Part shown: positions 42,855 through 51,502 of the stretch, in pieces | How positions within the stretch are numbered: position 1 is the stretch's first letter | How the letters are laid out: every line of letters starts with the position of its first letter | Source of the DNA: Candidatus Borrarchaeum weybense | GTDB taxonomy: Archaea > Asgardarchaeota > Sifarchaeia > Borrarchaeales > Borrarchaeaceae | Reading direction: 5' to 3' | NCBI GenBank assembly: GCA_019057385.1 | Contig: JAHQJS010000005.1 | Span: 288,799-352,798 of the forward strand | DNA: 64,000 bases | Position numbers and translations under genes: made by a program | Notes under the pieces: model-generated | What the model was told of the DNA's origin: nothing | Seen by the model: only the letters and a program-made list of their open reading frames with translations | Database searches by the model: none

Positions 42855-44035
42855 CCGCTTTCAATAAAACAAGGTGTTAACTCTCTCATTACCAATTGTT
42901 GACATAAAATTGCTTGTTTTTCTCGTCATTTATAGATGATCTTGCTACATTCATGTTGTTCTCGAAATCGTCTTACACAGACATCGTTTCTAATGCTAGC
43001 TACGGTATCTTTTTTGGTAAATCACGCGCGTAATTTCAAAAAAAAACAGTTGATTATAGCTCTATTGACATCTATTTATCATCGTTCGCAAAAATAAACA
43101 TCTGCGCTCCTTATTACAGTGACCTGACAACACTTTTTTACAGGATATGAGCGCTCTTGCCTTGAAACCTTCATTGCGCGACGGTAAAAAAGATACATAT
43201 AAAAGTGCTAAATGCGTAATATTTATATTGCTTCGCTGTATCACATAATTCCCCTCTATCTGAAATATCAATTTCGGATTTACTTAACTATGAGGGGACT
43301 TTTACCAATTGGATGCAACATACAGACCATAGTGCGTCTGTAGGTGAAGTAATTGGTTGTGAGTTCAACGATGAGCTTAAGGGACTGCGGATCTCAAGTC
43401 TCCTAATGACAAAGACTTGCCGATAGAATTTGGTAGTCTTTGTGAAGGCGGATACTGTGGTTCGCAGCGCGGGTTCGCGCACCAGCACCCCCGTCCACTG
43501 CCTTATGAACTCTGGCAGTAGCTGCGGCGCCTCAACGGACTCGGGCTGAACCTTGAGTGATTAGATCCAACTTCCACAAACTTATAGTTATTACTTTTAC
43601 GTATATCAAAGTAATTACCGCGATATACTTGCCTTCATCCCTCTTGTGGAGGAAGAGGGAACTGCTTTTCATGAGAATGTGGTCGTAGAAGGACTTAGTG
43701 GTTATGGTGAACACATTATCATAACTCGATTGAGTCTCGTTAAATGAGCAGGCTCGCTTGTGGCTCCGATACCGGTTGATCCTGCCGGACCCGACCGCTA
43801 TTGGGATGGGATTAAGCCATGCAAGTTGTGCGCTCCTAGTTATGAAGGAGAGCGGCAAAAAGCTCTGTAACGTGTAGTTAACCTCTCCTCAGGACGGGCA
43901 TACCCTCGGGAAACTGAGGTCAATTCCCGATAGTTGATTAGGCCTGGAATGGTTTTTCTTCCAAAGGTATCTTCTCATGCGAGGATACTACCTGAGGATG
44001 GGACTGCATCTGATTAGGTAGATGGTGGGGTAACG

Positions 44036-44074
44036 TGACCTTTAGTACACTCTTACACACTATCGGTCTTATAC
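44036..44074 (+). other. 16S BHB mini-intron, 39 nt (about E. coli 265/266)
   Basis: Interrupts GGGGTAACG|GCCCACC; GTAA/TTAT helix, GACC/GGTC stem. Confidence 0.88.
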
Positions 44075-44280
44075 GCCCACCATGCCGATAATCAGTACGG
44101 GCTGTGAGAGCAGTAGCCCGGAGATGGAGACTGAGACAACGCTCCAGGGCCTACGGGCCGCAGCAGGCGCGAAACCTCCGCAATGCACGAAAGTGTGACG
44201 GGGCCATCCCAAGTGCCATCCGATAAGGGTGGCTTTTTCTCAGTGTAAAAAGCTGGGCGAATAAGGGGAGGGCAAGGCTG

Positions 44281-44406
44281 ACTGGATTGAGGCAAATCAC
44301 TAACACTATATTCTCGATGAACTATACTTCCCTAAAACGCGGCGCTTATAGTTCATCAAAAACTCTTATGCTTATCAAACTTACAAAACGCCTCATCCAG
44401 GCCTAT
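44281..44406 (+). other. 16S BHB intron, 126 nt, no ORF (about 514/515)
   Basis: Interrupts AAGGCTG|GTGCCAGC; AGGC/GCCT helix, CTGGA/TCCAG stem. Confidence 0.92.
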
Positions 44407-44614
44407 GTGCCAGCCGCCGCGGTAAAACCAGCTCCTCGAGTAGTCGGGAGTATTACTGGGCCTAAAGCGTCCGTAGCCGGCTTTGTAAGTTCCTGGTCAA
44501 ACCCAGCGGCTTAACCGTTGGCTTGCTGGGGATACTGCAAAGCTTGGGAATCAGAGAGGCCAAGGGTACTAACAGGGTAGGGGTGAAATCCTGTAATCCT
44601 GTTGGGACCACCGG

Positions 44615-44645
44615 ACAGCAGAGAGACACTCTCCTGCTGGGTGAG
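44615..44645 (+). other. 16S BHB mini-intron, 31 nt (about 722)
   Basis: ACCACCGG|TGGCGAAGG; CACC/GGTG, CAGCAG/CTGCTG. Confidence 0.92.
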
Positions 44646-44716
44646 TGGCGAAGGCGCTTGGCTGGAAGATGTCCGACGGTGAGGGACGAAAGCCAGGGGA
44701 GCGAACCGGATTAGAT

Positions 44717-44747
44717 ACTTGGTGCTAATTATTGTATCATGCTAAAA
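44717..44747 (+). other. 16S BHB mini-intron, 31 nt (about 793/794)
   Basis: GGATTAGAT|ACCCGGGTAGTCC; TTAG/CTAA. Confidence 0.88.
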
Positions 44748-44872
44748 ACCCGGGTAGTCCTGGCTGTAAACGATGCGAGCTAGGTGTTTGCGTGGCTACG
44801 GGCTATGCAAGTGCCGTAGAGAAGTCGTTAAGCTCGCCGCCTGGGGAGTACGGCCGCAAGGCTGAAACTTAA

Positions 44873-44903
44873 GCAGAGCGAAGATCTACTTCCTCTGGAG
44901 GAA
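44873..44903 (+). other. 16S BHB mini-intron, 31 nt (about 914/915)
   Basis: GAAACTTAA|AGGAATTGG; CAGAG/CTCTG stem. Confidence 0.88.
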
Positions 44904-45040
44904 AGGAATTGGCGGGGGAGCACCACAAGGGGTGAAGCCTGCGGTTTAATTGGACTCAACGCCGGGAAGCTTACCGGGGGCGACAGCTGGATGAAAGCCA
45001 GGCTGATGACCTTGCTGGACTAGCTGAGAGGAGGTGCATG

Positions 45041-45919
45041 AGGTAGTCAGGTCGTTAGCAAAACTTTTCGTCGCTTTCCTTTTCCTCTCAATAACAAAAG
45101 TCTAGATTCTTCCTGATGTCCTTTTTAATTAAAAGGGATAAGTCAGGTTGAATTCAAATGACTATTGGCGACAAAGGAAAGTTTGTTTTACTTAAAACGA
45201 AAAGTCTCATCAATCGCATACGTCAACAGCATAATGAAACAGTTCGTGGTATTTACGAGCATGTCGCAGATCTTGTTAAATGGAATACATTTCGAGACTG
45301 GGCTTATAGAGGCTGGTCACGAATGCCTTTAGAAGTATTTAGGCGACTAAAAAGTAAATACAAACTCAAAGAATCACCAAAAACGGTTACAGAAAAACAA
45401 TGGTATACACTAACTCGAACGAGAGCCGCTGAAATAATGCATAAATGCCACCCTCATAAAGAGTGGCTATCAGAAGCCGCAAAAAAAGGCGGCGAGGCTG
45501 TAAAAGAAAAATATGGTGTTAAATATCTAACAAACCTTTCTGCAAAGGCGATTCACTCGTCATCTAGTTATAGGTATGAAGACGATGATGGAAACAAATA
45601 TCGCAGCCGCTTAGAATTATCCATCGCTAAACTACTCCGAACGCATAATTTGAAGTTTATATATGAACCAGAGATTGAGGGATATGTTCCAGATTTCAAG
45701 ATTAATAATCCCCTCATCGAAGTGTGCGGTTATTTCCGTGATAAAGATTATCTTACTCGACTTAAAGTCAAACTAACTGATTTAGTCAATAAAGGCTGGC
45801 AAATAATTCTAATATGCGAGCCTAGCAAAAAAGCAGTTCTCACTGAAGCAGTTAAAGGTATATCCATAAATGCGATTAAGACAACAGATGAGTTTCGACG
45901 ATTTCTGACTACCGGCAAA
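45041..45919 (+). mobile_element. 16S BHB intron, 879 nt, endonuclease-encoding (about 1057/1058)
   Basis: GGTGCATG|GCCGTCGCC; terminal stem GGTAGTCAG/CTGACTACC. Confidence 0.92.
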
Positions 45920-45955
45920 GCCGTCGCCAGTTCGTGCCGTGAGGTGTCCTGTTAA
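45158..45955 (+). CDS. Intron-encoded PD-(D/E)xK (T7 endonuclease I-like) putative homing endonuclease
   Basis: YRSRLE..IA..L......FIYEP....YVPDF......IEVCG; basic N-terminus with KKGG...KEKYG; the genomic ORF runs 36 nt into the exon. Confidence 0.75.
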   Translation: MTIGDKGKFVLLKTKSLINRIRQQHNETVRGIYEHVADLVKWNTFRDWAYRGWSRMPLEVFRRLKSKYKLKESPKTVTEKQWYTLTRTRAAEIMHKCHPHKEWLSEAAKKGGEAVKEKYGVKYLTNLSAKAIHSSSSYRYEDDDGNKYRSRLELSIAKLLRTHNLKFIYEPEIEGYVPDFKINNPLIEVCGYFRDKDYLTRLKVKLTDLVNKGWQIILICEPSKKAVLTEAVKGISINAIKTTDEFRRFLTTGKAVASSCREVSC

Positions 45956-50384: not shown

Positions 50385-50416
50385 AATGCAATTACGTAAG
50401 TGAGTTGCATGAGTAA
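50385..50416 (+). other. 23S BHB mini-intron, 32 nt (about 2299/2300)
   Basis: GCTC/GAGT, ATGCAATT/AGTTGCAT. Confidence 0.88.
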
Positions 50417-50427
50417 GTGGGTCAGAA

Positions 50428-50470
50428 TCAACGGATGAGATTCTGGCTATGACCTTATCAGTTGCTGAAT
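50428..50470 (+). other. 23S BHB intron, 43 nt (about 2310/2311)
   Basis: GGTCAGAA|ATCCACC; TCAG/CTGA, CAAC/GTTG. Confidence 0.88.
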
Positions 50471-50488
50471 ATCCACCGTAGAGCGTAA

Positions 50489-50519
50489 AGGTGAAGGTGA
50501 CCACCACCTTGCCATGTAG
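50489..50519 (+). other. 23S BHB mini-intron, 31 nt (about 2328/2329)
   Basis: GAGCGTAA|AGGTAAAAGC; GCGT/ATGT, AAGGTG/CACCTT. Confidence 0.85.
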
Positions 50520-50642
50520 AGGTAAAAGCTGGCTTGACTGTATTCTGACCAGTAAAGAATGCAGGAACGAAAGTTGGGCTTAGCGATCCTCAATACCTTA
50601 TCAGTGGGGGTTTGAGGTGACAGAAAAGTTACCCCGGGGATA

Positions 50643-50756
50643 AATGCGTCAGTTTTGTGAATATAGAAAGTGTGTAGACAAAGCTTAGTAAAGTTGTATG
50701 GGTAATTTAGCTTTGACGATTGTACAACTTTATGAGCGTCTGCGGCGCATTCCCAA
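50643..50756 (+). other. 23S BHB intron, 114 nt, between A2450 and A2451 equivalents
   Basis: GGGATA|ACAG; GGGA/TCCC, ATGCGTC/GGCGCAT. Confidence 0.92.
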
Positions 50757-50872
50757 ACAGAGTCGTCGCGGGCAAGAGCCCATATCGACCCCGCGGCTTG
50801 CTACCTCGATGTCGGCTCTTCCTATCCTCGATGTGCAGCAGCGTCGAAGGGTGGGGTTGTTCGCCCATTAAA

Positions 50873-50904
50873 AAGGAGGCGAAAAATACCTCTCTCCTTA
50901 ATAG
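50873..50904 (+). other. 23S BHB mini-intron, 32 nt (about 2566/2567)
   Basis: ATTA/TAAT, AGGAG/CTCCT, CCC/GGG. Confidence 0.9.
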
Positions 50905-50937
50905 AGGGAACGTGAGCTGGGTTTAGACCGTCGTGAG

Positions 50938-51059
50938 ATCGACTTAGCCGTTATCAAAGGAAACAATCAGGTAACTTAAACCCGATAAGGAAATCCGGTT
51001 ATTTGATTAGTGAGAGGCAGAAATAAGCAAAGTGATGGCAAAGGCTAAGTAGACACGAG
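50938..51059 (+). other. 23S BHB intron, 122 nt (about 2599/2600)
   Basis: CGTCGTGAG|ACAGG; CGTG/CACG, ACTTAGCC/GGCTAAGT. Confidence 0.92.
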
Positions 51060-51502
51060 ACAGGTTGGATTCTATCTGCAAGGACTGCCGGTGGTCTGAG
51101 GGTAGGGTGTTCTTAGTACGAGAGGAACGGAACGTCGGAGCCTCTAGTGTACCAGTTGTCCGAAAGGGCAGAGCTGGGCAGCCACGCTCTAACCGATAAG
51201 AGCTGAAAGCATCTAAGCTCGAAGCGGGTCCCGAAAAGAGACCACCAATCACCAACAGAGGAGTTAGGGTGACCGTCCGTAACTGTTGGGGACGAGGACT
51301 CCAGGAAAACACTGGTTTGATAGAGCTGAGGTGTAAGTGTCGAGGGTACAGAGATGGTACTCTTAGTATTGTACACTCGCCTAAATCCCTCCAACCTCTT
51401 GGTCATGTACATAACCGTCTCTTCGGAGATAGTTGTGTCGTGATTAATGTTGTTGGGCCGAGGCACTCAGCCTGCAGCCACTAAACGTCCGAGTGTTCAG
51501 AC

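Follow-up and report, generated by a model that had tools for sequence, protein, structure and literature searches.

How a working ribosome can be produced from ribosomal RNA (rRNA) genes that are far longer than expected is the question raised by the rRNA operon of Candidatus Borrarchaeum weybense, an Asgard archaeon. The operon lies in a stretch of 64,000 nucleotides (nt) of contig JAHQJS010000005.1 (assembly GCA_019057385.1), referred to here as the window, in whose positions its coordinates are given. Using Rfam, a 16S gene was located at 43769-46434 (RF01959, 1223 bits, model positions 1-1478) and a 23S gene at 46595-51398 (RF02540, 2311 bits, model positions 1-2987), both on the + strand, as are all window features below unless another strand is named. 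Both genes are complete end to end against their models and yet far overlong, spanning 2666 nt for the 1478 model positions of the 16S and 4804 nt for the 2987 of the 23S, and each is present in a single copy in the 4.18-Mb, 8-contig genome. The answer reached here is that this sole rRNA operon is very probably interrupted by 18 archaeal bulge-helix-bulge (BHB) introns, seven in the 16S gene and eleven in the 23S gene. Textbook examples of archaeal rRNA introns come from a small number of hyperthermophilic Crenarchaeota, whose operons each have a handful of them. The operon of Aeropyrum pernix K1 reportedly has three, and the published archaeal rRNA operons carry, to our knowledge, only few introns, compared with the 18 described here.

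Inserts, junctions and the BHB motif

Inserts in the 16S gene were delimited by alignment to five intron-free Asgard 16S genes, with E. coli rrsH serving as the position ruler, and those in the 23S gene by alignment to seven intron-free Asgard 23S genes and E. coli. A strict BHB motif was required to have a helix of 4 base pairs (bp) flanked by two 3-nt bulges, one on each strand, and to be cut behind the second base of either bulge; scoring was limited to registers whose spliced product equals that of the alignment. Helix lengths are given below in the order central/outer/inner (bp), and spliced junctions are marked with ^.

The seven 16S inserts measure 39, 126, 31, 31, 31, 879 and 33 nt (1170 nt in sum) and follow E. 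coli positions 265, 514, 722, 793, 914, 1057 and ~1457, the last at the tip of helix 44; the spliced 16S rRNA is 1496 nt long. Removal of the 39-nt intron after position 265 (44036-44074; BHB 4/8/4) yields GGGGUAACG^GCCCACC, and removal of the 126-nt intron after position 514 in the 530-loop (44281-44406; BHB 4/4/6, a motif reproduced by the minimum-energy fold) yields GGCUG^GUGCCAGCCGCCGCGG. Three introns of 31 nt follow. The first, after position 722 (44615-44645), has a central helix of 4 bp and an inner stem of 6 bp and is spliced to ACCACCGG^UGGCGAAGG (ACCGG^UGGCGAAGG); the second, after position 793 in the 790-loop (44717-44747), combines a 4-bp UUAG/CUAA central helix with a 7-bp inner stem containing one U-U mismatch, lacks an outer helix, and gives GAUUAGAU^ACCCGGG; the third, after position 914 (44873-44903), has a relaxed motif with 3/4 central pairs and a 5-bp inner stem and gives GAAACUUAA^AGGAAUUGGCGG (CUUAA^AGGAAUUGGCGG). 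The 879-nt intron after position 1057 (45041-45919) carries an open reading frame (ORF) and a motif with 3/4 central pairs, 2 outer pairs and a 10-bp inner stem, and its removal restores GGUGCAUG^GCCGUCG (GCAUG^GCCGUCG). The helix 44 tip contains the last 16S intron, of 33 nt (46319-46351; central 4, inner 6 bp).

Fourteen inserts were delimited in the 23S gene, of which eleven are counted as introns and three have no BHB motif. The eleven measure 30, 35, 1034, 21, 51, 32, 43, 31, 114, 32 and 122 nt (1545 nt in sum, after two boundaries were shifted to fit the motif) and lie at E. coli positions ~572, 748, 787, 1085, 1617, 2299, 2310, 2328, 2450, 2566 and 2599. The intron near 572 (47258-47287, 30 nt) has a 4-bp CUUG/CAAG central helix and, after one mismatch, a 7-bp inner stem, and splices to CCGUCUUGAA^ACACGGGCC. 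The next, near 748 (47642-47676, 35 nt; central 4, inner 4 bp), splices to GUUGACGUAC^AAUUCACUCCC, identical to the intron-free references. The 1034-nt intron near 787 (47715-48748) splits GGCAAAAGACC^AAUCUAAC, and its boundary may equally be placed up to 4 nt further on (47719-48752). After position 1085 the shortest intron (49055-49075, 21 nt; BHB 4/2/5) has AAA and AAU as its bulges, and its motif is reproduced by the minimum-energy fold. After position 1617 a 51-nt intron (49676-49726; central 4, inner 8 bp) interrupts ACUGACAC^AGGUGCCCC. Three introns are closely spaced after positions 2299 (50385-50416, 32 nt; BHB 4/3/8), 2310 (50428-50470, 43 nt; BHB 4/5/4) and 2328 (50489-50519, 31 nt; central 4, inner 5 bp). 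The peptidyl-transferase centre is interrupted after position 2450 by a 114-nt intron (50643-50756; central 4, inner 7 bp) whose removal gives CCGGGGAUA^ACAGAGUCG (GGGGAUA^ACAGAG). The remaining two follow positions 2566 (50873-50904, 32 nt; BHB 4/3/6), with the product CCCAUUAAA^AGGGAACGUGAGC (CAUUAAA^AGGGAACGUGAGC), and 2599 (50938-51059, 122 nt), with a 4-bp CGUG/CACG central helix and the product CGUCGUGAG^ACAGGUUGG (CGUCGUGAG^ACAGGU).

A recognisable BHB motif is present in 17 of the 18 introns, the 1034-nt intron being the exception. The central helix is a perfect 4 bp in 15 of them and has 3/4 pairs in two (16S 914 and 1057, with inner stems of 5 and 10 bp, respectively). For comparison with chance, 19 inserts were scored, namely the 18 introns and the 53-nt 23S insert described below; 11 of these 19 had both a 4-bp central helix and an inner stem of 4 bp or longer. 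Among 200,000 random site pairs placed in the operon with the same spacings, a 4-bp central helix occurred in 2.0% and both features together in 0.05%. All four central pairs were reproduced in 10 of 17 unconstrained minimum-energy folds of the intron with 14-nt flanks. The bulges are A-rich, and in about half of the motifs the exon-exon outer helix is short or missing, making these motifs relaxed. By size, 13 of the introns are minimal hairpins (21-51 nt), three measure 114-126 nt and have no ORF, and two, of ~0.9-1.0 kb, contain endonuclease-type genes. Their G+C content ranges from 0.29 to 0.58, mostly near 0.4, and that of the 16S exons is 0.58. Sequence searches found no copies of the introns elsewhere in the genome and no likeness between the introns.

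Polarity is identical in all 17 motifs: the four exon-1 bases that immediately precede the bulge are paired with four located close to the intron 3' end, and the reverse arrangement, in which the intron 5' end would pair with exon 2, did not score better in any of the 17. The clean cases examined in other Asgard genomes show the same polarity of the central helix, and this single polarity may bear on the origin of the introns.

The spliced junctions agree with the intron-free Asgard references and with E. coli, the intron at the helix 44 tip lying outside this check, and the restored stretches are invariant or nearly so in these sequences. A sequence-only reading of the same DNA had proposed 19 introns; its seven in the 16S gene were all recovered and its twelve in the 23S gene became eleven, so that the total is 18. 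Its intron totals of 1170 nt and 1545 nt were reproduced by the alignments, the latter from eleven introns, and every 16S site that it had named was found, with position 722 added. It had also stated that each cut two nt into a 3-nt bulge restores a conserved motif, which holds strictly for 15 introns and with 3/4 central pairs for two more, and fails for the 1034-nt intron. The underlying assignment to BHB introns was supported by a correct register in 17 of 18 cases, the restoration of conserved rRNA, intron-free sites in a genome of the same genus and the presence of EndA and RtcB genes.

Intron sites in other Asgard genomes

The closest comparison is provided by that same-genus genome (G003), in which the first half of the 16S gene was found on a syntenic contig with exons almost identical to those of the window near the intron sites. 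Introns are absent there at 16S positions 265, 514, 722 and 793, the boundaries lie exactly where predicted, and the four junctions match base for base. This contig (L081, G003:C193) stops at position 3381, a few bases past the 793 site. In two further genomes of the genus, both of high completeness, rRNA genes were not detectable; intron-rich or polymorphic rRNA operons may break assemblies in this genus.

At several sites, other Asgard families have introns with the same register and a motif of their own. A Freyarchaeia-like genome (G040) has a 90-nt BHB intron at 16S 265, and introns also occur at 16S 514 and 722 in G095 and G025. At 16S 793 the G095 intron is 32 nt long; both it and the window intron begin with AC and finish with GCUAAAA, and their stems are unrelated. 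Atabeyarchaeia-1 has a 911-nt intron at 16S 1057 (BHB 4/5/5). In the 23S gene, G095 has a 33-nt intron near 572 with the central helix CUCG/CGAG, as against CUUG/CAAG here, introns at 2449/2450 were found in eight sampled Asgard genomes, and those at 2599 in G046 (155 nt, UGUG/CGCA) and Atabeyarchaeia-1 (106 nt, CGUG/CGCG) compare with CGUG/CACG here. The central helix is thus kept at 16S 793 and 23S 572 and 2599 despite differing introns, with compensating changes at 572 and 2599 in comparisons of two to three sequences per site. Such compensatory changes would be as predicted for selection acting on the splicing motif, in what is a small sample.

Approximately 150 Asgard genomes were sampled, in which about 43 end-to-end 16S matches were obtained; six of these span more than 1800 nt. 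The 16S gene of the window (2666 nt) ranks second, after that of G095 (3594 nt), and its 23S gene is the longest of about 36 end-to-end Asgard 23S matches, the next measuring 4136 nt with two introns. No more than about five inserts each were found in the other Asgard 23S genes inspected. The spliced 16S sequence is at most 84% identical to those of the other sampled families, the nearest three of which include Freyarchaeia-like and Atabeyarchaeia families. Introns in rRNA genes are common in the sampled Asgard genomes, and this operon is an extreme of a known kind and not a new mechanism: it is the densest case of rRNA introns found, with a known type of element in a new host lineage and at mostly new sites.

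Two of the genomes named above deserve separate mention. G095, from the same family as the Hermodarchaeota metagenome-assembled genome discussed below, has a second very intron-rich operon (G095:C71:500-4400), with about eight 16S inserts near 159, 514, 722, 793, 908, 916, 1397 and 1519 and several in the 23S gene. The 16S gene of Atabeyarchaeia-1 (G016, CP147779.1) spans 2426 nt at G016:C1:448464-450889 and contains, besides the 911-nt intron at 1057, a 33-nt insert near 1397, while its 23S gene has inserts near 1784, 2496 and 2596. The published genome description gives its 16S rRNA as 1529 bp (PMC11291895).

Proposed splicing pathway and competing explanations

The genome encodes candidates for the proteins needed to remove such introns. 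Two ORFs have an EndA domain (PF01974), one of 208 aa at L083 1156-1782 with the Tyr/His/Lys pattern and one of 223 aa at L084 1420-2091 (- strand) without the His, and two RtcB loci (PF01139) are present. The solved chain closest to the 208-aa ORF is 3p1z_B, which we take to be from the heterotetrameric enzyme of Aeropyrum; the others, 3ajv_B, 2cv8_A and 2zyz_B, are, like it, presumably crenarchaeal enzymes. Judged from its domains, the EndA pair fits a heterotetramer of the crenarchaeal type with one catalytic and one structural subunit. Cleavage of non-canonical introns has been ascribed to two types of EndA, of which the heterotetramer is one (PMC5829648). In the proposed pathway, the last four bases of exon 1 before the cut would pair with four bases near the intron 3' end to form the 4-bp central helix, with a 3-nt bulge on either side, the body of the intron as the inner stem and, where possible, pairing between exon 1 and exon 2 as the outer stem. 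EndA, combining the catalytic subunit with its His-less paralogue, would then cut after the second base of each bulge, and RtcB would join the exons and circularise the intron. We infer cleavage, ligation and intron circles from these motifs and genes. Because the operon is the only one in the genome and introns lie within invariant motifs (the 530-loop, the 790-loop and the peptidyl-transferase centre), a working ribosome would need all of them to be removed.

The two large introns differ in what they encode. The 1034-nt intron contains a 297-aa LAGLIDADG homing-endonuclease ORF (47826-48719) that matches Pfam LAGLIDADG_3 (PF14528) with 27.4 bits against a cut-off of 22.5, and whose translation shows two LAGLIDADG-like motifs. 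Its 3' end (48712-48758) holds GGGGUUAGA, which nearly repeats exon-1 bases 47696-47703 and could pair with the start of exon 2 beside a 9-bp hairpin; this stretch may be a remnant of the target site or an alternative structure controlling the 3' cut. In the 879-nt 16S intron, a 265-aa ORF from the ORF list (45158-45955) extends 36 nt beyond the 3' splice site. It has no Pfam match, and homologues with 65% identity were found in the 16S-1057 introns of Atabeyarchaeia-1 (CP147779.1) and of Hermodarchaeota YT_063 (JAEOSX010000174.1). The three members were aligned (window 45158-45955; L012, Atabeyarchaeia-1, 2665-3417; L080, 2864-3658), and a scan of genome contigs with this alignment returned only the two known homologue loci; the window ORF by itself gave no match in such a scan. 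The reading frame crosses the 3' splice site into exon 2 here and in the Hermodarchaeota copy and ends within the intron in Atabeyarchaeia-1. Since the homologues occupy the same 16S site, this is a site-specific, intron-borne gene family, presumably of homing endonucleases.

Outside the genes, long inverted repeats around each rRNA gene form processing stems of the archaeal type upon folding. The 5' arm of the 16S stem (43733-43755, inverted repeat I2) pairs with 46468-46490, the joint fold being a long bulged helix, and the 5' arm of the 23S stem (46535-46552, inverted repeat I14) pairs with 51544-51561 in a long stem. Upstream of the operon sit intron-containing transfer RNA (tRNA) genes. 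A 93-nt tRNA gene at 40368-40460 on the - strand has an anticodon that could not be named by ARAGORN, and a partial Rfam tRNA match covers 42209-42262 on the + strand (model positions 10-63); each resembles a tRNA gene split by non-canonical introns. The region 41650-42600 has an rRNA-like G+C content of ~0.50, compared with a background of 0.35.

The inserts are best explained as BHB introns of the archaeal type whose removal depends on EndA and RtcB, a reading that the motifs, the junctions and the predicted enzymes support and against which several observations weigh. No clean BHB, strict or relaxed, was found for the 1034-nt intron by hand or by script; the best register obtained for it combines a 3-bp ACC/GGU helix with AA|U bulges on both sides. 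For the helix-44-tip intron, two registers are possible, the second being 46317-46353 (37 nt; BHB 4/6/1), and because its site is in a variable region, conservation offers no check on the spliced product. Several mini-introns lack an outer helix and would need an endonuclease that accepts relaxed motifs, a tolerance that would have to follow from the type of this EndA. Finally, the genome is a metagenome assembly with an estimated contamination of 7%.

Three 23S inserts bear directly on the question of whether inserted RNA is removed at all. Two lie in the region of helix 25 (H25), one of 19 nt (47360-47378) and one of 116 nt (47396-47511), the latter folding into a long irregular hairpin with a UUCG tip loop and lacking any BHB that would restore the product; the third, of 53 nt near E. 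coli 1183 (49177-49229), forms two small hairpins. Their best BHB scores were no better than chance, for the 53-nt insert in any register, and neither the 53-nt nor the 19-nt insert was counted as an intron. All three are in peripheral, length-variable regions without a splicing motif, and the H25 region varies in length among Asgard genomes, with inserts of 36-90 nt in G022, G012 and G095. They are probably expansion segments; enlargement of these regions was seen in other Asgard genomes as well. If the introns too were kept in this way, or were excised without rejoining, mature rRNA would be enlarged or fragmented, and at several helix tips (16S h44, 23S ~572 and 2310) a break or an extra hairpin would perhaps be tolerated. 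Most of the inserts, however, interrupt core motifs that are invariant and either single-stranded or tightly packed, GUGCCAGCCGCCGCGG, GAUUAGAUACCC and GGGGAUAACAG among them, and a ribosome could hardly be expected to work with additional or nicked RNA at such places. Moreover, cutting in the register of the motif recovers the conserved sequence base for base, RtcB is present in the genome, and the same-genus G003 is uninterrupted. Retention or fragmentation is accordingly considered unlikely.

It is more improbable still that the operon is an assembly artefact in which rRNA alleles of several strains, each with few introns, were merged. Operons of this kind are a classic weak spot of metagenome assemblies, and the absence of four introns from G003 demonstrates that intron content varies within the genus. 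In places, however, introns of 31-126 nt are only 11-125 nt apart, which is less than a read length, and they are therefore physically linked; the window also lies within a long contig with normal flanks. Of the 31-mers sampled from the 7.8-kb stretch, 94%, 78% and 72% recur in independently built contigs from three sediment runs of one study, possibly the source samples, and these shares lend weak support to the integrity of the assembly. Six wetland metatranscriptome runs contain 24-32% of the stretch's 31-mers. A search of metagenome contigs with the 28-nt spliced double junction of the 23S introns at 2299 and 2310 gave 55 matches, all at most 78% identical to the spliced 23S sequence and hence from unrelated organisms in which the motif also occurs, and was uninformative on splicing or on intron-free alleles.

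A self-splicing nature (group I or group II) for the two large inserts, in place of BHB splicing, is likewise very hard to credit: LAGLIDADG genes are common in group I introns, which are known in archaeal rRNA genes (PMC6125680), and the 1034-nt intron has no clean BHB, but the operon gave no Rfam match to such introns at gathering thresholds, nor did the 1034-nt intron in a permissive search of 47690-48775 at E <= 10, this intron has only ~110 + 30 nt outside its ORF and therefore too little for a ribozyme core, and the BHB of the 879-nt intron has an inner stem of 10 bp.

Known systems and significance

Protein-spliced BHB introns, as proposed here, are most familiar from the rRNA genes of Thermoproteales and Desulfurococcales (Pyrobaculum, Thermoproteus, Caldivirga, Aeropyrum), which share with this operon the BHB at the junction, the location at conserved rRNA sites, the removal by EndA and RtcB, and the mixture of long introns with endonuclease genes, short hairpins (<50 nt) and ORF-less remnants (PMC4496867). 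Thirteen archaeal 16S intron loci have been catalogued (374, 548, 722, 781, 803, 901, 908, 919, 978, 1093, 1205, 1213 and 1391; Jay & Inskeep 2015, PMC4496867). Only 722, a known Thermoproteus locus, is common to both; the other six sites, one of them in a variable region, are outside the 13 loci. The sequence-only reading had placed 265, 514, 793, 914, 1057 and the h44 tip outside the Thermoproteales sites, in agreement with this catalogue. The host also differs, being an Asgard lineage of mesophilic sediment with low G+C. That such introns would be unexpected in an Asgard archaeon is true of the literature, in that a full-text search found no paper describing Asgard rRNA introns, but not of the genomes, many of which, in the sample, carry rRNA introns, several at the same sites.

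A second parallel comes from the related Asgard lineages Atabeyarchaeia and Freyarchaeia, to whose 16S sequences the spliced 16S here is ~83% identical. Valentin-Alvarado et al. (2024, PMC11291895) report that 92-95% of their tRNA genes are interrupted, which resembles the present case in the spread of short BHB introns at non-canonical positions and differs in that the hosts here are rRNAs; the passages returned by a term search of that paper for 'intron' all concern tRNA and none rRNA. The insertions in rRNA genes of bacteria of the candidate phyla radiation (CPR) are likewise numerous per gene, often accompanied by homing-endonuclease genes and found in uncultivated lineages; unlike the introns here, they are bacterial, of group I or protein-independent, and have neither a BHB nor an EndA/RtcB pathway (PMC11270868). 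The supersized expansion segments described for the 23S rRNA of Asgard archaea (Penev et al. 2020, PMC7594248) also add RNA to the large subunit, and the three BHB-less inserts may be alike; such segments are retained and grow from peripheral helices, whereas the 18 introns split core motifs and, except for the 1034-nt one, have a splicing motif.

If the introns are removed as proposed, ribosome production in this archaeon would depend wholly on the tRNA-splicing enzymes, with about 18 actions per precursor in addition to the two processing stems. There are also consequences for surveys. The targets of the common 16S primers 515F and 806R span the intron sites at 514 and 793, and since the introns interrupt such targets and break rRNA gene callers, lineages of this kind are under-counted in amplicon surveys and their rRNA genes mis-annotated, the 16S gene of Atabeyarchaeia-1 being an example.

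Together with the published excess of tRNA introns in related Asgard lineages, the operon suggests a clade-wide expansion of protein-spliced introns, which bears on the origin of intron-rich genomes near the root of the eukaryotes. A further proposal, put forward tentatively as a possibility that we do not favour, is that this lineage and its Atabey-, Frey- and Hermod-like relatives have undergone, or are undergoing, a genome-wide spread of minimal BHB introns into essential RNAs (tRNA and rRNA), with the rRNA mini-introns arising de novo, at new sites and through a directional process. Offered for directional gain are the single polarity of all 17 motifs and the finding that no sequence is common to the introns or shared with the rest of the genome. 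If true, protein-dependent intron proliferation, a process usually reserved for eukaryotes, would be open to study in their closest archaeal relatives.

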